From Candidatus Diapherotrites archaeon ADurb.Bin253 (GTDB taxonomy: Archaea; Nanobdellota; Nanobdellia; Pacearchaeales; GW2011-AR1), in NCBI GenBank assembly GCA_002069705.1, contig MWBV01000002.1, forward strand, positions 2,691 through 66,690: a DNA stretch of 64,000 bases, in the 5' to 3' direction. Positions 2,420 through 54,160 of the stretch are shown piece after piece (the stretch's first letter is position 1; each line of letters begins with the position of its first letter). The notes beneath the pieces are model-generated. The model saw only the letters and a program-made list of their open reading frames with translations. It ran no database searches and had not been told where the DNA came from. Position numbers and translations under genes: made by a program.

Positions 2420-4696
2420 TTATAATTCTGGGAACACACAACAAACCATATTTGTAGAGCATTCTCCTGTTCCAACTTCTCCTCCTTCACAAGGATTTTC
2501 ACTCCTTCCTGCAGATATACAAGTTGCTCCAGGAGTTTCTAAACATGAATGGCTTATCATACTTATTGGCATTTCAGTTTCATATCTTTCTAAATCCCCT
2601 TTAACATATGCATTTCCCCTGTAAATTTTTTGTTCAACTGTAACGTTTTCTTTAACTTCTCCATTCTGTTTTAATTTTTGGAAAATAGCAGTTATTAATT
2701 CTGATTCAGGGTCACTATATCTTCCATTCATACTTGCTTTATACCCACAATCTCCCATAGATTTAGCTCTCTCTGTTATTGATTTAATCCATTCATCATT
2801 TGTTAAGTATATTGGGTAATCTCTTTCTTTATCTTCATCTTTTTCTTCATCTCCAGCACCAGTTGTACAATCATAATTTTTTCCAGTCACCTTTCCTGAA
2901 ACCCATTTATCTGGTTTTCCAGCTTTATGGCAATACTGCCCTCTTCTAGTGGATAAATAATATGAACTCACATCAGATGGAAGCTTAAATTCAGATTCAT
3001 CATAAAATTCAGTTAAAACATTATAAGCAGTGCACGCTCCTCCAATACTTGTGCAATGTATTTCTTCAGGATATTTTTTTTCTTCTCCTACTTTTTGATT
3101 GAATTCCATTCCATAATAAGGAATAGCATAACATCCATTTAAACATCTATGTGCAATTTCTTTATTTCCCCAACCATTCTCCCTGTTTCCCATATTCTCT
3201 CTACTTGATGTCCAATGAACTTCAAAAAAAGCAATTTCCTGAAAACCTGCTGAAGCACATATTATATTTCCTTGAGTTGTAGGGTTCCAAAAATCAAAAC
3301 CAGGAGCAATTAAAGGAACACATGAACCTTGAAATTCTTTTCTTTCTTCTTCAGAAGCAATTTCTAAATCCCACCTATATCCCGGAATCCATTTACATAA
3401 AGTGTTGTCTGATTCACATTGACTTCTCCTATCTATAACAGAACATGCTTTCCAAGGATTATATACGCAAGAAGCAATACTTCTTTTTGAATAATCATCT
3501 TTTCCTTGCATACACACACTATTTCTATAATCTCCACACTCTTCAACAATAACTTCCCCAAAAGAACACACTAATTTATAGTATCTGCTTCCAGGTAAAT
3601 TATATTTGTCTACATTTCTTAATTCATCTCTATCTTTTTTGAAAATTGCTCCTGTAGTTAAATTTCTATTAATTATTAATGTTCCTGCAGTTCCTTCACA
3701 CCAGCTCTCTCCGTGTTGATAAGTTACCCCCTTATATTTGCAACTTAAATCTCCACACACAAACCCCTCTTCATTATTTTGGGGCTTATTAGGTAAAGCA
3801 CTTTTCTCAACATCTTTGTAATTCTGACAAACTGTATTTGCAGTTGTATCACAATTTCCACAAGTTGTACTTCCACGAGCACCTACTTTACACAAAGAAT
3901 CATCATATTCTTCTATCATATAATTCCAATAATCAACATTATCATATTTGCTAGAATCATAAATATTAGCTAAATTTCCACACAAATCCATGTAATAAAC
4001 TTTATTGTCTTTACACACAGTATTTTTACTTTTAGCACAATTTGAAATAGAAATACCATTTATTGAAGCAGTGCATAAATGGTTTTCATAAAATCTTACA
4101 TCTATTTGATTAACTCCTGTAGGGGAATCTTGCAAATATTTAGAAAGTTCATTTACTTTTTCAGGAGTACATTCACTGTTTGTAGTTATTTTGCACGCTT
4201 TTTCATTTAAAGAACTCACAACACAAGCCCCTCTTTTAACAGTTGCTTGCATAACTTCACATTCTAATCTGGAACTAATATCTTTTCTTATTATTCCTTG
4301 AATTCCATGTTGAGACATTAAATTTTTACATTCAGTTTCTGTCATAAAATAAGCATCTTGTCCTAAAACGCAGCAATACTCCTGACATGCTGGAACTTCA
4401 TCTATATCTTTTTCACTCCAAACTCCTCCAGAATTGATACATTGCGCTTTAGGAGTATATTGACTACACTCCCCTGTCTTTGGATTAACACATGTTCCAT
4501 AACATTCTGGAACTAAATTACATGTCTCTTTATATAACCATATCTGATATGATGAGTCACATTGACTTTGACTTGTTGCAGCTTTACACCACATTTCACT
4601 CTCCTTTAACTTCTCACAACAAATAGCAGAAACATACATACTCCCAAATAAAACTAATGCCAAAGCAAAAACTGTTATCACACACTTTTTTTTCAT
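2420..4696 (-). CDS. Secreted cysteine-rich protein, 758 aa, unknown family
   Basis: Track ORF with signal peptide MKKKCVITVFALALVLFGSMYVSA. I count about 51 Cys spread over the whole length. The C-terminus is a six-Cys module CLETPGATCISAGRSENPCEGGEVGTGECSTNMVCC. There is a 1-nt gap to the upstream gene. Confidence 0.75.
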   Translation of the reverse strand: MKKKCVITVFALALVLFGSMYVSAICCEKLKESEMWCKAATSQSQCDSSYQIWLYKETCNLVPECYGTCVNPKTGECSQYTPKAQCINSGGVWSEKDIDEVPACQEYCCVLGQDAYFMTETECKNLMSQHGIQGIIRKDISSRLECEVMQATVKRGACVVSSLNEKACKITTNSECTPEKVNELSKYLQDSPTGVNQIDVRFYENHLCTASINGISISNCAKSKNTVCKDNKVYYMDLCGNLANIYDSSKYDNVDYWNYMIEEYDDSLCKVGARGSTTCGNCDTTANTVCQNYKDVEKSALPNKPQNNEEGFVCGDLSCKYKGVTYQHGESWCEGTAGTLIINRNLTTGAIFKKDRDELRNVDKYNLPGSRYYKLVCSFGEVIVEECGDYRNSVCMQGKDDYSKRSIASCVYNPWKACSVIDRRSQCESDNTLCKWIPGYRWDLEIASEEERKEFQGSCVPLIAPGFDFWNPTTQGNIICASAGFQEIAFFEVHWTSSRENMGNRENGWGNKEIAHRCLNGCYAIPYYGMEFNQKVGEEKKYPEEIHCTSIGGACTAYNVLTEFYDESEFKLPSDVSSYYLSTRRGQYCHKAGKPDKWVSGKVTGKNYDCTTGAGDEEKDEDKERDYPIYLTNDEWIKSITERAKSMGDCGYKASMNGRYSDPESELITAIFQKLKQNGEVKENVTVEQKIYRGNAYVKGDLERYETEMPISMISHSCLETPGATCISAGRSENPCEGGEVGTGECSTNMVCCVFPEL

Positions 4697-24576: not shown

Positions 24577-25080
24577 TTATTGATTTAGTTTATTTTTCTT
24601 TTCACTTTTACTTGTTCTTTTGTTTCCATCCTTCATTTTTTTACTTGTCCAGTAAGAGACATATATAAGAACTACCAATGCAATACTTAAAATTATAAAT
24701 CTCACCAAATCATCCATATAATTCCAGTATCTACTTGTTCCATAAATAATGAACATCAAACTCCCAAACATCAATCCCCCTGAAATAGAATTTGTACTTA
24801 TAAATATTGTACATCCAACAATAACTAAAATTCCAAATATTAAACTTATTATAAACATTTTTTTAGAATAATCTTTGTTCGCTTCATTATATTTATCCGA
24901 ACACTCTCTATAAACTTGTGTATAATAAGATTCATTGATATAATCTGTTTCTGAAAATTCTTGATAATCGCAATAATCTTCGTATTTCGGTTCATCATAT
25001 ATTAATTTTGTTCCAAAAACACAAAACATCAAAAATATTATTGCTATCGCAATTCCAAGTATAATCTCTTTTATTTTCAT
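24577..25080 (-). CDS. Membrane protein, 167 aa
   Basis: Track ORF with an N-terminal anchor and three further hydrophobic helices. Its start context is identical to that of the upstream paralog gene. Confidence 0.5.
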   Translation of the reverse strand: MKIKEIILGIAIAIIFLMFCVFGTKLIYDEPKYEDYCDYQEFSETDYINESYYTQVYRECSDKYNEANKDYSKKMFIISLIFGILVIVGCTIFISTNSISGGLMFGSLMFIIYGTSRYWNYMDDLVRFIILSIALVVLIYVSYWTSKKMKDGNKRTSKSEKKNKLNQ

Positions 25081-25095
25081 TTTATAGATTTATGT

Positions 25096-25644
25096 TTATC
25101 TTGCTTTAGATGTTGCTGTAAAAAGTATGTTATCATATTCCTGATATACTCCATCAATTTCACTTTTAATTTCTATATTATAACTAACAGTACACAAAGG
25201 AGATCCAGTAGGAATCTCGAAGTATATCTTTGTAACATAATAATCTCCAAAACTTATAGGAATATTATCTTCAGATTTTCCATTTGAAATCCAATCTAAT
25301 ACATTTTCATCACCACATGTACTCTCAGCAACAACAACATTATAAGAAAATATTGAAACATCAGAAGAATTTTCTAATAAGTTTCTTATCCCAAGTGCAA
25401 TAGCTTCTTCTTGTCCTTGTTTTATTATTAAACTCCTTGATTTAGGATATATTGCCGACTTATCTTCATCTGAACCAAAAGCTTTTCCAATTTCATTTGC
25501 TGACTGTTGTTCTGTTAAAGGTAATACTCTCTCCTTGGCAGAGTCTCTTTCAACACCTTCTTTTAAAATTAATTCGTTTACTAAAATAGCTATAATTACT
25601 AAAGATACTATTACAAGAATTATAATCTTGGTTTTTCTTTTCAT
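25096..25644 (-). CDS. Membrane-anchored secreted protein, paralog B of a tandem pair
   Basis: It shares NEIGKAFGSDE, AIYPKS, IKQ.QEEAI.LGIRNLL, STCG.ENVL.WI, GDYY.TKIYFEIPTG.PLCTV and a TSKAR end with the 25660 gene. Confidence 0.6.
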   Translation of the reverse strand: MKRKTKIIILVIVSLVIIAILVNELILKEGVERDSAKERVLPLTEQQSANEIGKAFGSDEDKSAIYPKSRSLIIKQGQEEAIALGIRNLLENSSDVSIFSYNVVVAESTCGDENVLDWISNGKSEDNIPISFGDYYVTKIYFEIPTGSPLCTVSYNIEIKSEIDGVYQEYDNILFTATSKAR

Positions 25645-25659
25645 TTTATAGATTTATGT

Positions 25660-26229
25660 TTATCTTGCTTTAGATGTTATAACAAAAGGTATGTTGTCAT
25701 ATGCATACCATTGGTTATTTCTATTAGCCCTTACTTCAATTCTGTATTTAACAGTACACAAAGGAGCTCCAGTAGGAATCTCGAAGTATATCTTTGTATC
25801 ATAATAATCTCCAACACTTATAGAAATATCTTCTTCTTTAGATCCAATCTTTATCCAACTTAACACATTCTCATTTCCACATGTACTTTGAGCAACTTTA
25901 ACTTCATATGAAAATTTTTGAGCTCCAGAAGTACCTGTCAATAAGTTTCTTATCCCAAGTCCAATAGCTTCTTCTTGTTCTTGTTTTATTGTTAGACGAC
26001 CAGATTTAGGATATATTGCTAATTTAGCTTCATCTGAACCAAAAGCTTTTCCAATTTCATTTGTCAATTGTTGTTCTGTTAAATCCATTGCACTTTTAGA
26101 TGTATTAAATATTGTTTTAGTCAATATTAACCCTAAAACCAAAGCAGACATTAAAAGAACTATAGTAACTATTGTTCCAACACTCATCTCCATTGCTGCT
26201 CTTTTGGATTTCATGTTCTTCATCACCAT
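25660..26229 (-). CDS. Pilin-like (class III signal peptide candidate) secreted protein, paralog A of a tandem pair
   Basis: The N-terminus KSKRAAMEMSVGTIVTIVLLMSALVLGLIL resembles archaeal type IV pilin signal peptides. The rest is paralogous to the 25096 gene. Confidence 0.6.
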   Translation of the reverse strand: MVMKNMKSKRAAMEMSVGTIVTIVLLMSALVLGLILTKTIFNTSKSAMDLTEQQLTNEIGKAFGSDEAKLAIYPKSGRLTIKQEQEEAIGLGIRNLLTGTSGAQKFSYEVKVAQSTCGNENVLSWIKIGSKEEDISISVGDYYDTKIYFEIPTGAPLCTVKYRIEVRANRNNQWYAYDNIPFVITSKAR

Positions 26230-33192: not shown

Positions 33193-34636
33193 AGGAGGTA
33201 ATCCAACTGCAGGTTCCCCTACAGTTACCTTGTGACGACTTAACCTACCTTGTCACATCAAGGTTCTCCCCCGAAGGGTTTCACCATAACATAACTCGGT
33301 TGGTTTGACGGGCAGTGTGTGCAAGAGACAGTGACTTATTCACCGTTCGCTGCTAACAAACGATTACTACGGATTCCAGTGTCACGAGGCTGAGTTTCAA
33401 ACCTCGATCTAAACTGAGATGGACTTTAAGAGATTAGCTTCGCCTTTCGGCGTTGCGTCCCGTTGTATCCACCATTGACGCGCGCGTGTTGCCCAGGGGA
33501 TTCAGGCTGTACTCACCTAACGTAGCCCGCACTTTCATCCTCGTTACCAAGGCAATCTGTATATTGTACACGTAGTAAATATACATGCGGGTCTTGCCTG
33601 TTACCTGATTTAACAGGTCACCTCACGGCACAGGCTGACGTTGGCCATGCAACTCCTCTCAGCGTGTCAGGTAAGCCCTTCAGACTGACCTTCATCCTGC
33701 TGTCGCTCCTGGTGAGGTTCACGGTGTAGAATCTAATTAAACCGCACGCGTCACTCGTTGTAGTGTCTCCCCGCCAATTCCTTTAAGTTTCGATCTTGCG
33801 ACTATACTTCCCAGGTAGCTCACTCTTCGCCTTCGCTTCAGCACTGAAACCTCCCGAAGAGGCCCCAATGTTTAGTGAGCAGTGTTTACTGCCAGGACTA
33901 CACGGGTATCTAATCCCTTTTGCGCCCCTAGCCTTCATCCCTTACTGTCAGAACTGTCCTCGTAAGATGCCTTCGCTGTTGTTAGTCCGTCTGGGATTAA
34001 CACATTTTACCGCTACTCCAAACGTACTTCTTACGTCTTCCAGTCTCTAGCTTAACAGTACTTCTTGCCCGCTCCATATTTGAGACATGGAATTTCACAA
34101 GAAACTTATTAAGCAAGCTACGGATGTTTTAGACCCAATAATGATGGCTGCGACTTGGACCGCGAGTATTACCGCGGCGGCTGGCACTCGTCTTACCCAG
34201 TCCTTATTCGCCAAACTTTTTACATTTGGCAAAAGCTTTTCATATGAAAAGCACTCTGACTCAATCTGTCATACTTTCGTACATTGCAGAAAATTCCTAA
34301 CTGCTGCACCCCGTAGGGCTGGGAATAGTGTCTCAGATTCCCTCTCAGGGCCTCTCCGCTAAGAGCCCTTACGGATCATTGGCTTGGTGGGCCTTTACCC
34401 CGCCAACAACCTAATCCGCCGCAGCCCCATCCTTAAGCACGAATTTGAGAGATGAATCATTCCAGGGTACATCTCCTATCGAGTATTAACCTCAGTTTCC
34501 CGAGAGTATCCTCGACTTAAGGGTAGGTTAGCTACGTGTTACTGAGCAGTTCGCCTTTCACTTCCGAAGAAACAAAAAGACTTGCATGTCTAAGTGCAAA
34601 TCAGAGAGCCGCAGCCGCTAGCAGGATCAACTAGAT
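33193..34636 (-). rRNA. rrs: 16S rRNA (about 1.44 kb, short)
   Basis: The reverse strand 5' end is AAUCUAGUUGAUCCUGCUAGCGG. The 515 region is GUGCCAGCCGCCGCGGUAAUAC. The 915 region is AGGAAUUGGCGGGGAGACAC (archaeal type). The 3' end is GGGGAACCUGCAGUUGGAUUACCUCCU. Confidence 0.9.
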
Positions 34637-49213: not shown

Positions 49214-50691
49214 ATTAACCTCTTTTCTATTTCTTTTCTTAATTCATCTGCAAGAAAAGGACGTCCATCATATCTTAATATTTTATTTTTATCTTGTATA
49301 AACATACCAGTGTGTTTTGAGATAACTCCTGCTAATTGTCCTGTTGAAGAATTCTCTACAAGAATTATATTTTTCCTCAGAAGATTTTCTTTTATTCCGT
49401 CTGAAAAAGGTTCAAGATATTTTACATGTAAAAATTCAACATCTAAATCCTTTATTGCATCAAGTATAGCTCCTTTAGTTGACCCCCAGCTTACAACTAC
49501 ATTCATAGAATCTGTTTCACCATAAACAGAAAATCTTGGGAATTTTTCAACCTCTTTTTTTATTTCCTGAGTTTTTCTTAATCTCCTATCTACATTTGCT
49601 TTTATTATCTGAGCATTTTCTGTAGCACTTCCAATATTGTCTTTCTCATAACTATTATATCTTATAAGTTGTGTTGTATTTTCTACTTTTTTTATAGAAG
49701 ATTCTTCTTCAAGTGTGTAATAACTTTCAGCAAGATGTTTATCTCCAAGAATTATAGAAGGTATTTTGAATTTTTGAGATAAATAAAATGCTTCATTTGT
49801 TATTTCCTGTGCTTCTTTTGGGTCTCCTGGTGCAGCAACTGTTCTTGGAAATTCTCCATGTCCAAAATTCAATGCCATATTCAAATCTCCTTGAGAAGTG
49901 TAAGTCGCAACACCTGTTCCAGGACCAGGTCTTTGTGCTAAATAAACAACAATAGGTATTTCTGCAACACCCGCCATACTTAATCCCTCAGTCATTAAAT
50001 CAAATCCTCCTCCAGAAGTTCCAACCATAACATTTTTTCCTAATGCTGCACTCCCTAATCCTGCATTAACAACAGCAATTTCATTTTCTAATTCTATTAC
50101 CTTTACACCATCAACTGGAGCTAACTCGCTAAGTATAGGTGTTGCAGGAGTCATCGGATATGCATAATAAATATCTATCCCTGAGTTTAAAGCCCCATTA
50201 CATATTCCAATATTTCCATTTATGAAATAACTCTCTTTTTTTACTGTTCTTATTTTGCATACATTTCTTGTTTCTTCATCATATCCTCTTTTTGCATTTG
50301 CAAGATTTTCATTGAAATTTTTCTCTAGCTTTCTCAATCCTTCTTCAAGAAGTTTAAAATCCATACATAATAATTTGAAAATTCTCCCAGCATAATACAT
50401 ATTCTCCTTAGAATCTTTAAGCAATATTCCTCCTGTTTTCAAGTTTTTTTTATGGAGTTCTTCTGTTTTGCTATCTAAACAAACTAAAATATCTATCTTT
50501 GAATCATTACTAGATACAGGTTCATCTGAAAAAGTAATTACATTAAAGTTGTGTCCTCCTCTTATAAGTGATTGATAATCTCTTGAATAAAAAGCATAAT
50601 TTCCACTTTTTATAATAGCATCACCTATAATTTGAGTTAAAATATTTGGACCTTGTCCTGCTTCACCCCCTATAAGTATATTATATCTCAC
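49210..50691 (-). CDS. 2-oxoacid:ferredoxin oxidoreductase, fused gamma-alpha subunit
   Basis: The N-terminal gamma-type motif is ILIGGEAGQGPNIL. The alpha core is YAYPMTPATPILSEL and GTSGGGFDLMTEGLSMAG. Confidence 0.8.
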   Translation of the reverse strand: MRYNILIGGEAGQGPNILTQIIGDAIIKSGNYAFYSRDYQSLIRGGHNFNVITFSDEPVSSNDSKIDILVCLDSKTEELHKKNLKTGGILLKDSKENMYYAGRIFKLLCMDFKLLEEGLRKLEKNFNENLANAKRGYDEETRNVCKIRTVKKESYFINGNIGICNGALNSGIDIYYAYPMTPATPILSELAPVDGVKVIELENEIAVVNAGLGSAALGKNVMVGTSGGGFDLMTEGLSMAGVAEIPIVVYLAQRPGPGTGVATYTSQGDLNMALNFGHGEFPRTVAAPGDPKEAQEITNEAFYLSQKFKIPSIILGDKHLAESYYTLEEESSIKKVENTTQLIRYNSYEKDNIGSATENAQIIKANVDRRLRKTQEIKKEVEKFPRFSVYGETDSMNVVVSWGSTKGAILDAIKDLDVEFLHVKYLEPFSDGIKENLLRKNIILVENSSTGQLAGVISKHTGMFIQDKNKILRYDGRPFLADELRKEIEKRLI

Positions 50692-50798
50692 TTTGTACCT
50701 CTTTATCGCAATTAATTTTATATATAGTAATAGTTTTGAGCTGTTATAAACTTTTTTGTATAAAAATAGTTAAAAATATTCATTAAATTAATACTAAA

Positions 50799-50930
50799 AT
50801 GGTAAGGTTTGCTCACGACGACTTTAGGAGGAGTCTGCTAAAATGGTAAGGTTTGCTCACGACGACTTTAGGAGGAGTCTGCTAAAATGGTAAGGTTTGC
50901 ACACGACGACTTTAGGAGGAGTCTGCTAAA
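50799..50930 (+). repeat. Three head-to-tail 44-bp copies of the mre11 start region
   Basis: The copies occupy 50799-50842, 50843-50886 and 50887-50930. Each reads ATGGTAAGGTTTGC(T/T/A)CACGACGACTTTAGGAGGAGTCTGCTAAA. The genuine mre11 start at 50931 repeats the first 18 nt with a G at the variable base. Confidence 0.95.
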
Positions 50931-52103
50931 ATGGTAAGGTTTGCGCACATAGCAGATGTACATCTTGGAGGATGGAAACAACAACCAATGCAGAATTTAA
51001 ACTTTGAGTCATTCAAAGAGGCTGTGAATATATGCATAACTTCTAAATTAGATTTTGTGCTGTTTTCAGGAGATTTATTTGATTCAGCATACCCTCCAAT
51101 AGAGATACTGAAAGAAACTTTTGCACAATTTAAAAGACTTAAAGATGCAGGAATACCTTGTTTCACAATAGCAGGTTCTCATGATTATTCTGTATCCGGT
51201 AAAACTTTTCTAGATGTTCTGGAGAAAGCAGGATTTTGTAAAAATGTATATAATGCAGAAGAAAAAGAAAATTCAATAACTCTAAATCCTGTTATTTACG
51301 GAAATGTTGCAATATATGGATATCCAGGTAGAAAATCTGGTTTAGAAATAGCAGATTTGAAAAAAGTTAAATTCAATGATGCTCCTGGTTTATACAAAAT
51401 ATTTATGCTTCACACAACAATAGACAGAGTTGTAGGAACACTCCCAATTGAATCAATTAATCCAGATAGACTTCCTCATGCAGATTATTATGCTCTTGGG
51501 CATATTCATGTTTTTTACAGCGATAGAGGATTTGTTTATCCAGGTCCACTATTCCCAAACAATTTCAAAGAACTTGAAGATTTAAAGCAAGGTTCTTTTG
51601 TAATTGTTGATACTGAATCTAATTCAAGATTACAAAGAATAAAATTGCCAACAAAGCAAATAGAACACATGGTTATTGAAATAGAAGATGCATTAACAGG
51701 AACAGAAAAAATAATTTATGAATTAAATAAAAGAAATCTTAAAGATAAAATAATTCTTCTTAGGGTCTATGGTGAATTAAAAAGAGGAAAATCTTCTGAT
51801 ATAAAATTTTCTAAGATTGAAGAATTTGTTAAAGGCAAAGAAGCTTATTTTTTATTAAGAAATACTCATGATTTAATTTCTGAAGAACAGGAACTAGACC
51901 TTAAACTACCTGAAAAAGATTCAGAGAATATAGAAGAAGAAACAATAAAGGTTTATTCTGAAGAAAACCCTTCTTCTTTCAATAAAATAATTCCAGAATT
52001 AATGAATGCACTTTCAATAGAAAAACAAGAAGGAGAAACAACAGAAACTTTCAATAACAGGATACTTCAAGGAACTAAAAAGTTCTTTAAATTTCCTAAT
52101 TAA
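50931..52103 (+). CDS. mre11: DNA double-strand break repair nuclease Mre11
   Basis: Phosphoesterase motifs are FAHIADVHLGG, FSGDLFD, IAGSHD, MLHTT and GHIH. Confidence 0.9.
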   Translation: MVRFAHIADVHLGGWKQQPMQNLNFESFKEAVNICITSKLDFVLFSGDLFDSAYPPIEILKETFAQFKRLKDAGIPCFTIAGSHDYSVSGKTFLDVLEKAGFCKNVYNAEEKENSITLNPVIYGNVAIYGYPGRKSGLEIADLKKVKFNDAPGLYKIFMLHTTIDRVVGTLPIESINPDRLPHADYYALGHIHVFYSDRGFVYPGPLFPNNFKELEDLKQGSFVIVDTESNSRLQRIKLPTKQIEHMVIEIEDALTGTEKIIYELNKRNLKDKIILLRVYGELKRGKSSDIKFSKIEEFVKGKEAYFLLRNTHDLISEEQELDLKLPEKDSENIEEETIKVYSEENPSSFNKIIPELMNALSIEKQEGETTETFNNRILQGTKKFFKFPN

Positions 52104-52108
52104 TTAAA

Positions 52109-54160
52109 ATGAAAATAAAACGAATAATATTAAAAAATATAAGAAGCTATGAGTATCAGGAAATAACTTTTCCAGAAGGTTCAGTCCTTCTTTCAGGAGA
52201 TATTGGCTCAGGTAAAACTTCAATACTTTTGGCAATAGAATTTGCATTATTTGGTTTACAACCTGGACAAAAAGGTTCTTCTCTCTTACGCAATGGGCAA
52301 GTTAATGGAGGAGTTGAAATAGAATTTGAAGTTGACAATAAAACAATAATTATTGAGAGAACCTTAAAAAAAACAAAATCTATTTCTCAAGATTACTGTT
52401 CAATTTCAATAGATGGAGATAAAAAAGAAATTTCAGTTACAGAACTAAAAAGTAAAGTCCTTGAAATATTAAACTATCCGAAAGAATTTTCAAAGAAACA
52501 GAATATACTTTACAAGTTCACAGTTTATACTCCACAAGAAGAAATGAAGCAAATCATTCTTGAGGATTCAGAGACAAGAATAAATACTTTAAGACATGTT
52601 TTTGGAATAGATAAATACAAAAAAATACTTGAAAACGCTTCTGTGTTAATTGCTAAAGTAAGAGAAGAAAAAAGAATAAAGGATGCTATAACTTCAAATC
52701 TTGAACATGATAAATTACACATAGAAACCAAAGAAAAAGAACTTTCAGAAAAATCATTTAGCATACTTTCATTTGAAGATGATTTAAAGAAAAAATCTGA
52801 AAAAAGAAAAATTATTCAGGAAGAAAAAGAAGAGATATTTAGAAAAATAGATGAAAAGAGAAAGCTTCAGCAGGAAATCGAAAAAACAATATTTCTTAGA
52901 TCAACTAAAGAAGACACTATTTCAAGCAATTCACGCATGATGACTCAGCTTAAATCTCAGATTCAGGAACTAAAAGATTTAGATTATGATGAAAAAGAAA
53001 TAGAAAAATTGGAAAAAGATATTTCTGAATTAAAATTAAAGAAACAAGAGTTAAATGAACAAAATATACACATTACAAGTTTAATCCATTCTCTTAATTC
53101 TAAAAATTCTGACAATGAAAAAGTAAAAGAAAAACTTAAACATCTTGAAGTCTGTCCAACATGTCTTCAGGAAGTTGACCCAGTATACAAATCAAATGTT
53201 GTTAATCAAATGGATTCAGACACTTCTGCAAATAATAATTTGATAAAAGAAAACACAGAGAAAAAAGAAGCCATAAGGGACCAAATGCTTAAACTTGATT
53301 ATGACTCTTCAATAAAAGAAAAAAGAATTCACGAATTAAGAATATTGAAAGTAAGATTACGTGAACTTGATGATAAACAAAGACATCTAACAACACTGGA
53401 AAAAACAAATCTTGCTTTAACTAAAGATTTAGAGATGCTTGACAGCCAAATAAATCTCCTTAAATCAAGTGTTTTTGAACTTAACAAATATGATAATATT
53501 AATGATGCAAAGCAAAGAGAGCTTAATGAAGCTTTGAGAGAAGAAAAACTAGCAGAAATAAAAGTTGCAGAGCTGAAAAGAGAAATAGAAGTATTTTCAA
53601 GACAAATAAATGAGATGAAGGAGCGTGTAAAAAAGACAGAAGAAATAAAACAACAAGCTCATTATCTTTCTGATTTAGAAGAATGGCTTTCAAAGAAATT
53701 TATACCAATAATTCTTGTTGTTGAAAAAAATGTTTTCACTAAACTGAAAATAGAATTCTCTAAACTTTTTTCTAAATGGTTCTCTATGTTAGTGTCAGAT
53801 AGTTTTAATGTAAGATTAAGTGAAGATTTTACACCAATAATAGAACAACAGGATTATGAAATAGATTATGCTTATCTTTCAGGAGGAGAGAGGACAGCTA
53901 TTGCCCTTGCATATAGACTTGCACTAAATCAAGTAATTAATTCTTTTTTGAGTAAAATAAAAACAAGAGATTTAGTTATACTTGACGAACCAACAGATGG
54001 TTTTTCAGAACAGCAATTAGATAAGATGAGAGAGGTTTTAGATGAATTGAATGTTTCCCAGTTAATAATTGTAAGTCATGAACAGAAGATTGAAAGCTTT
54101 GTAGATAATGTAATAAAATTCAAGAAAGAAAACGGGAGAAGCATTATTGAAACTAAATAA
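52109..54160 (+). CDS. rad50: DNA double-strand break repair ATPase Rad50 (short coiled coil)
   Basis: Walker A GDIGSGKTS, zinc hook CPTC (LEVCPTCLQEV) in mid coiled coil, signature LSGGE, Walker B LVILDEPT. There is a 5-nt gap after mre11. Confidence 0.9.
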   Translation: MKIKRIILKNIRSYEYQEITFPEGSVLLSGDIGSGKTSILLAIEFALFGLQPGQKGSSLLRNGQVNGGVEIEFEVDNKTIIIERTLKKTKSISQDYCSISIDGDKKEISVTELKSKVLEILNYPKEFSKKQNILYKFTVYTPQEEMKQIILEDSETRINTLRHVFGIDKYKKILENASVLIAKVREEKRIKDAITSNLEHDKLHIETKEKELSEKSFSILSFEDDLKKKSEKRKIIQEEKEEIFRKIDEKRKLQQEIEKTIFLRSTKEDTISSNSRMMTQLKSQIQELKDLDYDEKEIEKLEKDISELKLKKQELNEQNIHITSLIHSLNSKNSDNEKVKEKLKHLEVCPTCLQEVDPVYKSNVVNQMDSDTSANNNLIKENTEKKEAIRDQMLKLDYDSSIKEKRIHELRILKVRLRELDDKQRHLTTLEKTNLALTKDLEMLDSQINLLKSSVFELNKYDNINDAKQRELNEALREEKLAEIKVAELKREIEVFSRQINEMKERVKKTEEIKQQAHYLSDLEEWLSKKFIPIILVVEKNVFTKLKIEFSKLFSKWFSMLVSDSFNVRLSEDFTPIIEQQDYEIDYAYLSGGERTAIALAYRLALNQVINSFLSKIKTRDLVILDEPTDGFSEQQLDKMREVLDELNVSQLIIVSHEQKIESFVDNVIKFKKENGRSIIETK

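Follow-up and report, generated by a model that had tools for sequence, protein, structure and literature searches.

Why should the first codons of a gene stand four times in a row, and what does such a repetition mean for the amount of protein that is made? The question is raised by mre11, which together with rad50 lies on a stretch of 64,000 nt (hereafter the window) from contig MWBV01000002.1 (assembly GCA_002069705.1, positions 2,691 to 66,690, forward strand) of Candidatus Diapherotrites archaeon ADurb.Bin253, a DPANN archaeon whose genome has a content of guanine plus cytosine of about 30%. On balance, and with moderate confidence, we interpret the array at the start of mre11 as a tandemly amplified "decoy-start leader cassette", i.e., a copy-number-variable translational leader on the mre11-rad50 mRNA. 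Judged from the sequence, such decoy-start leaders probably set the amount of Mre11-Rad50 made.

For the description of the locus, all tandem repeats of the window were determined initially. Tandem Repeats Finder reported a period-44 array at 50794-50948 (3.5 copies, 98% matches), which with a score of 296 far exceeds any other tandem repeat of the 64 kb. The 23-mer CTAAAATGGTAAGGTTTGCNCAC occurs exactly four times (50794, 50838, 50882 and 50926, with N being T, T, A and G) and the 21-nt filler GACGACTTTAGGAGGAGTCTG exactly three times, where shuffled sequence would be expected to contain neither. Three near-identical 44-bp units occupy 50799-50930, with starts at 50799, 50843 and 50887, and each cassette is composed of a copy of the first 23 nt of the predicted mRNA (CTAAA and six mre11 codons) and of 21 nt with a ribosome-binding site. 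Every unit translates into a 16-codon upstream open reading frame (uORF) with the peptide MVRFAHDDFRRSLLKW, and the UAA of each uORF overlaps the following AUG by 7 nt (AUGGUAA); all three units thus show the co-directional ORFs with overlapping stop and start that are characteristic of termination-reinitiation pairs. A Shine-Dalgarno (SD) hexamer AGGAGG is located 11 nt ahead of each following ATG (50826-31, 50870-75 and 50914-19), and no SD was found ahead of the first ATG (50799). The hexamer is complementary to the CCUCCU of the 16S ribosomal RNA (rRNA), which ends in ...GGAUUACCUCCU. The first-pass annotation of the window had already described the three units ahead of the mre11 start at 50931, their overlapping 16-codon ORFs and the position and complementarity of the hexamer, and the repeat search, exact counts and translation bear it out in all these points. 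Only the stop of uORF3, which it had placed at 50936-50938, has to be corrected to 50935-50937, within codons 2-3 of mre11.

The sole variable site of the array is the wobble position of Ala5 (50813, 50857, 50901 and 50945), which has three states within one species: the decoys carry T or A and the real gene G or A. In the relatives assigned below to family D, the base at the corresponding position is paired with the filler. The G of the real copy creates GCGC, and it is speculation that this could represent a hotspot of methylation or deamination. No gene besides mre11 has a duplicated start within the window, and the filler is absent from the rest of it.

The mRNA's 5' end was predicted from the promoter geometry of the window. 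In 17 of 28 first-in-unit genes T(A/T)(A/T)AAA ends 20-24 nt 5' of the ATG, which represents a sharp positional peak, and the first-in-unit genes with a TATA-like box at this distance are devoid of an SD. In operon-internal genes AGGAGG starts at -17, the same position as in the unit (e.g., 39089, 60414, 61523 and 29090, at -17/-16). Archaeal TATA boxes are centred about 26-27 nt upstream of the transcription start, and the spacing of 20-24 nt between box and ATG therefore implies leaderless mRNAs. For mre11, the TATA-like box is found 22-23 nt 5' of the first ATG and no TATA-like motif is present in the 70 nt preceding the real ATG at 50931. The relatives keep the box 21-23 nt 5' of the first ATG, with or without cassettes. 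Going by this geometry, the mRNA's 5' end very probably lies at or next to the first ATG (50799), so that the repeats would be inside the mRNA, as had been presupposed in the first-pass annotation. With this predicted 5' end, mre11 would be leaderless in alleles without a unit and an internal, SD-led cistron in alleles with cassettes. As a side observation, the 60 nt upstream of the first ATG exist in two unrelated promoter-proximal types, …CTTAAAAACTCYAAARCAATTCA… and …GTATAAAAATAGTTAAAAATA…, which form a mosaic among close relatives (L011, L019, L020 and L047 compared with the window, L014, L015 and L044); L011 has both types in series.

At least 153 blocks of public assemblies code for the identical Mre11 protein. 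From this species, ten long contigs and four metagenome contigs were compared with respect to copy number. In these contigs the distance between the upstream gene and mre11 varies in 44-nt steps. No unit is present in L004-7 and L010, and one unit in L008, L025 and L039. Two units occur either with the Ala wobble bases T, T followed by the G of the real gene (L002) or with A, A followed by G (L003, L023 and L041), and three units with T, T, A followed by G were found in the window and in L009. Comparison of the flanks over 4.7 kb yielded 0 single-nucleotide polymorphisms (SNPs) between L008 with one unit and L005/L007 with none, and 10-25 SNPs between other strain pairs, from which it follows that the number of units changes faster than point mutations accumulate. 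The locus therefore has the property of contingency-type loci, a 5' tandem repeat whose copy number differs among otherwise identical genomes. The variable copy number that the first-pass annotation had envisaged is a fact, with 0-3 units in one species, including on identical haplotypes. In the 0-unit allele no trace of the 21-nt filler is left, so that the cassette is not a slippage product of local sequence; simple local slippage as origin was rejected on this ground and since the filler occurs nowhere else in the window. From one unit upward, the cassette can expand, contract or be lost via the 23-nt direct repeats. In L001 (GCA_035351515.1) a 100-N scaffold gap at 2940-3000 falls exactly on the array, with the mre11 start on both sides, which is consistent with an assembler that met mixed copy numbers in the sample.

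The supposition that the array is a one-off triple duplication of the start had to be abandoned: the 0-unit allele has no filler, and homologous or analogous cassettes are present in many related lineages. The comparison of related mre11 upstream regions that the first-pass annotation had recommended revealed recurrent decoy starts with at least five filler families, some of them tandemly amplified. In a pattern scan for two mre11-type starts 20-50 nt apart, a decoy start was detected on 25 metagenome contigs, with filler families A to E; fillers outside 20-50 nt were sampled solely via 80 species-level loci. In this unbiased sample of 80 species-level genomes, six to seven (about 8%) carry a decoy start. 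Family A (filler of 26 nt) comprises the window, L020, L022/L049 and L029, and family A' L035 and L036. Family B has fillers of 35-39 nt, family C of 42-44 nt and family D of 45-61 nt (L015, L019, L026, L037, L031, L034, L066 and L070), and in family E (L067) the junction lies one codon earlier. The decoy starts copy the start of their own lineage, like ATGACA in L066 and ATGGCT in L070. L015/L046, whose Mre11 is 89% identical, carries two 68-nt units with the same junction after the His6 codon and an unrelated 50-nt filler. Multi-unit arrays were found in L046, L019, L035, L042, L066 and L067; some contain diverged units, which indicates that arrays can persist. Filler families mostly track Mre11 clades and are interleaved with cassette-free species. 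This pattern agrees with cassettes that are old, are often lost and evolve in concert through unequal crossing-over, and some horizontal spread is possible.

Within family A the unit length is fixed at 44 nt in five lineages, and the fillers are 77-92% identical between lineages of 71-87% Mre11 identity. The same lineages are identical in 51-64% of the third codon positions and in about 35-50% of the 60 nt of unalignable promoter DNA upstream. The family-A filler is thus more conserved than synonymous sites.

Two relatives deviate from the common layout. In L067 (1200-1520) the units of about 68 nt are joined after GCT and encode the hydrophobic peptide MVRFALVQIIALIWISRESKK; a run of N breaks up the array of at least three units, and the AGATTC of the start has its complement in a GAATCT segment. 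L092 (1440-1540) has no decoy start. Here GTCTTAC directly 5' of ATG-GTAAGA forms a hairpin abutting the start, with AGGTG at about -13 and a TATA-like box about 60 nt upstream, a layout which may represent a true mre11 5' untranslated region with an anti-start and without a decoy in some lineages.

Conserved RNA structure is most evident in family D, whose filler includes an anti-start, GNG-A-GAAUUUUAC. This element is complementary to codons 2-6 of the following start, and the SD and AUG lie within the 13-16-nt loop of the hairpin. The hairpin reaches z-scores of -4.3 to -5.6 against shuffles in four of six cases. In nine distinct sequences 92.6% of the cells of the helix are paired, and five of its 12 pairs show compensatory changes, e.g., GUA/UAC against ACA/UGU in L066 and the pairing of the Ala wobble base with the filler; 0-1 of 500 shuffles were as good and slid controls were paired to 13-53%. 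A covariance model of family D also detects family C and L070, both of which were outside the training set. The prediction that the family-D filler hairpin sequesters the real start is strongly supported by this covariation. Family B has a local 7-bp hairpin in which pairing is complete (100%) and two pairs are compensatory; that the RNA is conserved and not the peptide is evident from coupled V/A and H/R changes and from a loop deletion that breaks the frame. The conserved start itself, ATG-GTA-AAA/AGG-TTT-GCN-CAY (50799-50816 and relatives), is a quasi-palindrome in which ATG/CAT and AAA/TTT are reverse complements, so that base-pairing between two tandem copies is possible and is seen in the folds predicted for families B and C. 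In a search of 50650-51100 against Rfam 15 no family reached its gathering score (best 18-20 bits against 42-100). An array or neo-array of the CRISPR type (clustered regularly interspaced short palindromic repeats) was rejected, since the three "spacers" are identical, lengths vary between lineages and the region has no Rfam match.

From these elements the following mechanism is proposed. As in the majority of the organism's first genes, transcription would begin on or beside the first ATG (50799), and the mRNA from which strains without a unit make Mre11 would be leaderless. If n cassettes are present, the AUG at the 5' terminus would open a 16-codon mini-ORF ending at the UAA that overlaps the next AUG. 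Termination-reinitiation, new SD-led loading on AGGAGG or a combination of the two would bring the ribosomes to the next start, and the last cassette would pass them to the real mre11 AUG. Translation of mre11-rad50, leaderless in the absence of the cassette, would in this way become uORF-coupled and SD-led. Unequal recombination or slippage between the 23-nt repeats would rapidly alter the number of units, which could serve as a heritable setting of Mre11-Rad50 output, in either direction. In the structured sister families the anti-start of the filler would pair with the downstream start, and translation of the mini-ORF should unmask it; family A of the window looks, by its sequence, like a shortened version which keeps the SD and weak pairing only. 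Archaeal reinitiation needs overlaps or very short gaps (PMC6728339, PMC10666635), and in a Sulfolobus cell-free system leaders without an SD were untranslated while SD-led distal cistrons could be translated independently (PMC7531240); in the light of these papers each step of the mechanism is plausible. A bolder version is tentative and in our estimation rather improbable: a self-propagating modular relay specific to DPANN mre11-rad50, in which start copy, SD and an anti-start masking the next start pass on the ribosomes. Frequent recombination between the repeats would alter the number of modules, by which the capacity of these symbionts with reduced genomes to repair double-strand breaks would be set heritably, in the manner of a rheostat or contingency locus.

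Several observations weigh against a regulatory leader. All sequences derive from metagenome assemblies, and we infer the start of transcription, the translation of the uORFs and the effect on the level of Mre11 alike. Among the related species, 73-74 of 80 (about 92%) are without any cassette and 0-unit alleles are common, which shows that the cassette is dispensable. The strong structural evidence of family D could not be extended to family A. In family A the filler segment GUCUGCUA can pair with UAGCAGAU (codons 7-9; 50949-50956), and this helix is 90% paired in five lineages and kept in four of them with one compensatory change, which is not significant, as 108-160 of 500 shuffles were as good. 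A 7-bp remnant of an anti-start (GACUUUA with UAAGGUU) is visible in family A; the local hairpin of the window has a z-score of -1.6, the 1-unit leader one of -0.8, and the family-D covariance model gives no match in the window. Similar reservations apply to the reading frames. The length of 18 out of 27 distinct units is 2 mod 3 with a 7-nt AUGGUAA/AUGGUGA overlap at the end, and the other nine break this rule and stop 1-25 nt ahead of the next ATG; as in two of three frames the context TAAAATGGTAA automatically places a stop close to the next ATG, the frame bias is suggestive and no proof. Of the termination-reinitiation ladder postulated in the first-pass annotation, the overlap and SD anatomy stands as described, and the frame on which it depends is not universal among the units. 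Decoy and real starts differ almost exclusively by synonymous changes, and the decoy wobble bias of 9:1 (p = 4e-4 against a null of 1/3) drops to p of about 0.1 once the null allows constraint on the real copy; it was not relied on, and evidence that the decoy codons themselves are constrained is weak.

The foremost rival explanation, to which we assign a smaller but substantial probability, is a tolerated by-product. An old illegitimate duplication or insertion would slip or cross over unequally and be spared, as its units carry an SD and an intact start, without any regulatory role. For the window's own short cassette, which has no significant structure, this is credible. Rapid gain and loss, the patchy spread and the partly automatic stops agree with it, and the quasi-palindromic 18-mer might favour template-switch duplication at 50799-50816. 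It is at odds with a filler conserved above the level of synonymous sites next to promoter DNA that cannot be aligned, and with helices maintained by compensatory changes in families D and B. The diverged multi-unit arrays of L019 and L066 imply long persistence despite easy loss, and unit lengths within families shift by three (53/56; 65/68/71), i.e., indels are multiples of 3, which likewise speaks against a by-product.

A footprint of a mobile element, i.e., a target-site duplication or site-specific recombination aimed at the first 18-23 nt of mre11 with the filler as remnant, appears improbable. In its favour are a junction that in most families is constant and directly follows His6, decoys which match the lineage's own start, similar fillers in distant lineages and the patchy distribution. 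No longer element was found at the site in more than 120 loci, however, the fillers measure just 21-61 nt and that of the window is confined to the array. Three scans of 2.9 million viral contigs (family-A filler, family-D core and general decoy-start pattern) gave no match, and a viral or mobile-element origin was rejected on this basis. Moreover, family-D decoys (…TTTGCCCAC) are closer to each other than to their own real starts, which misfits a fresh target duplication, and filler families mostly follow Mre11 clades.

It is even less likely that the product of the mini-ORF is itself functional, for instance as a small protein mimicking the N-terminus of Mre11. The mutual similarity of the family-D peptides (…LSNCVDEVVVRILQE…) and the predominance of synonymous differences between decoy and real start could be read in this sense, but the peptides are wholly different between families, L031 and L019 share filler nucleotides in different frames, and in family B a 1-nt loop deletion changes the frame with the hairpin kept, the coupled V/A and H/R changes tracking base-pairing. 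As frames and peptides are conserved neither across nor within families, a conserved leader peptide was rejected, and a sensory element in the form of a common codon run or stall peptide was not found in the families.

Two further explanations are very unlikely. Removal or skipping of the units, so that the first AUG makes Mre11 via a bulge-helix-bulge intron or programmed ribosome bypassing, could draw on direct repeats as matched "take-off" and "landing" codons and on known bypass gaps and mini-introns, whose size range includes the unit lengths of 44-71 nt, but it was rejected on anatomy and motif scan: the real AUG and SD are intact and make removal unneeded, no stop follows the putative take-off codon (CAC, then GAC), and the scan gave no bulge-helix-bulge with flanking helices at a multiple-of-44 spacing, the candidates being spaced at 46, 90 and 134 only. 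Mis-assembly of a short-repeat copy number, conceivable for short-read metagenomes and in view of the scaffold gap in L001, was rejected as well, as the T,T,A,G array recurs in the independent assembly L009, the 1-unit and 2-unit states each come from at least three sources with consistent internal variants, and the periodic stretch of only 67 nt should not allow the 0-versus-1 difference to arise from k-mer collapse at usual k; the alternative of a single-copy artefact named in the first-pass annotation is thereby settled in favour of a real array.

The features of the locus and of its surroundings are compiled in Table 1. The mre11 product matches Pfam Metallophos, and its top solved-structure matches are the Mre11 proteins of P. 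furiosus and M. jannaschii. Rad50 is short for an archaeal Rad50 and has the same length in all relatives, which implies a much reduced coiled coil. The 16S 3' end (33193-33204, minus strand) reads GGAUUACCUCCU, where the usual archaeal end is GGAUCACCUCCU; the anti-SD core is intact. Elsewhere in the window, three adjoining paralogous genes for 167, 182 and 189 aa are encoded on the minus strand at 24577-26229. The 35 nt upstream of two of these genes (…acatctaaagcaagataaacataaatctataaa ATG) are almost the same, which points to a tandem duplication of recent date.

Table 1. Coordinates of the features discussed for the mre11 locus (positions within the window).
Feature	Position	Strand	Remarks
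TATA-like box TTAAAAATAT of the mre11 promoter	50770..50779	+	hexamers (50770-50776) end 22-23 nt 5' of first ATG
Whole tandem array	50794..50948	+	44-bp unit, 3.5 copies; 23-nt core CTAAA+ATGGTAAGGTTTGCNCAC, four copies; 21-nt filler, three copies
uORF1, peptide MVRFAHDDFRRSLLKW	50799..50849	+	predicted leaderless 5' AUG; without SD; UAA 50847-50849
uORF2, peptide MVRFAHDDFRRSLLKW	50843..50893	+	AGGAGG upstream at 50826-50831
uORF3, peptide MVRFAHDDFRRSLLKW	50887..50937	+	Ala codon GCA; AGGAGG upstream at 50870-50875
Shine-Dalgarno AGGAGG of the real mre11 AUG	50914..50919	+	hexamer starts at -17, like internal genes of the window
Filler 3' part GTCTGCTA	50921..50928, also 50833-40 and 50877-84	+	complementary to mre11 codons 7-9
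TAGCAGAT, mre11 codons 7-9	50949..50956	+	I-A-D of nuclease motif I; possible 3' arm pairing with the filler
mre11 (390 aa)	50931..52103	+	start repeats the 18 nt of each unit, Ala codon GCG
rad50 (683 aa)	52109..54160	+	5 nt 3' of mre11; co-transcribed by position
16S rRNA 3' end, CCUCCU anti-SD	33193..33198	-	gene ends ...GGAUUACCUCCU at 33193

To our knowledge, very little is known about gene regulation in uncultivated DPANN archaea with small genomes, and little about post-transcriptional control of leaderless archaeal genes, which have no 5' untranslated region. The cassettes suggest an answer for leaderless genes: the start is duplicated, the resulting leaderless mini-ORF becomes the leader, an SD is added and some families add an anti-start hairpin. 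They offer a concrete model for the interplay of leaderless, SD-led and reinitiation translation in archaea. With Mre11-Rad50 as target, copy-number switching could give rise to strain-level differences in the capacity for recombination and repair. The approximately 25 diverged cassettes with their covariation-supported helices are material for the definition of a new family of cis-regulatory RNA.

Leaders of this type were not found described for archaeal mre11 or for DPANN archaea in the full-text literature, the coverage of which was incomplete, so that this is absence of evidence only; within these limits the statement of the first-pass annotation that no equivalent has been described for archaeal mre11 holds. 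The cassettes apparently represent an undescribed class which recurs in DPANN relatives and of which the window is one copy-number-variable member.

Among known systems, the mycobacterial polycysteine LL-sORFs are leaderless short-ORF attenuators (Canestrari et al., bioRxiv 10.1101/834739): a leaderless polycistronic mRNA opens with a short ORF, and a duplex hides the start of the next gene, access to which is controlled by the ribosomes on the short ORF. The family-D relatives are a close match to this type and the cassette of the window matches in layout. Unlike the attenuators, the cassettes are archaeal and have neither a sensory codon run nor a conserved stall peptide, their ORF starts with the first six codons of the regulated gene itself, and they are tandemly amplified with variable copy number, the pairing in the unit of the window being putative only. 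Termination-reinitiation coupling (Huber et al., 2019, PMC6728339; 2023, PMC10666635) likewise involves co-directional ORFs with overlapping stop and start and an SD upstream of the restart, and in terms of frame the 7-nt AUGGUAA overlap continues the series of the 1-nt and 4-nt overlaps. The known cases join full-length genes, often for subunits of a complex, whereas here serial 16-codon decoys are found and the coupling is putative. In M. tuberculosis, tandem units of 54-58 bp are located immediately upstream of the leaderless genes dop, lpdA and cysG, and the number of these units, which were proposed to tune expression, undergoes spontaneous changes both within a strain and from strain to strain (PMC12817950). 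These repeats duplicate promoter elements and act on transcription, whereas the mre11 unit, which includes the start codon as well as an SD, is located 3' of the TATA box and should have its effect on translation.

Attenuation of erm and cat genes resembles family D in its hairpin, the 5' arm of which is overlapped by a leader ORF while the 3' arm conceals the downstream start. It differs in that stalling by a drug or ligand is a feature of erm/cat, while the cassettes are archaeal and lie on an mRNA predicted to be leaderless, and codons 2-6 are part of the stem, the loop of which contains SD and AUG. Programmed bypassing, as in phage T4 gene 60 and the mitochondrial "byp" elements, makes use of an insert of about 27-55 nt with matched flanking codons and a hairpin and SD-like element in the gap. 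In the cassettes the downstream copy retains AUG and SD and no take-off stop is present (CAC, then GAC), so that bypassing is neither required nor indicated. None of the compared systems combines a decoy of the regulated gene's own start with tandem amplification. On this reading the mre11 cassettes would be akin to leader-ORF attenuation and translational coupling, and the new side is the decoy start and its tandem amplification.

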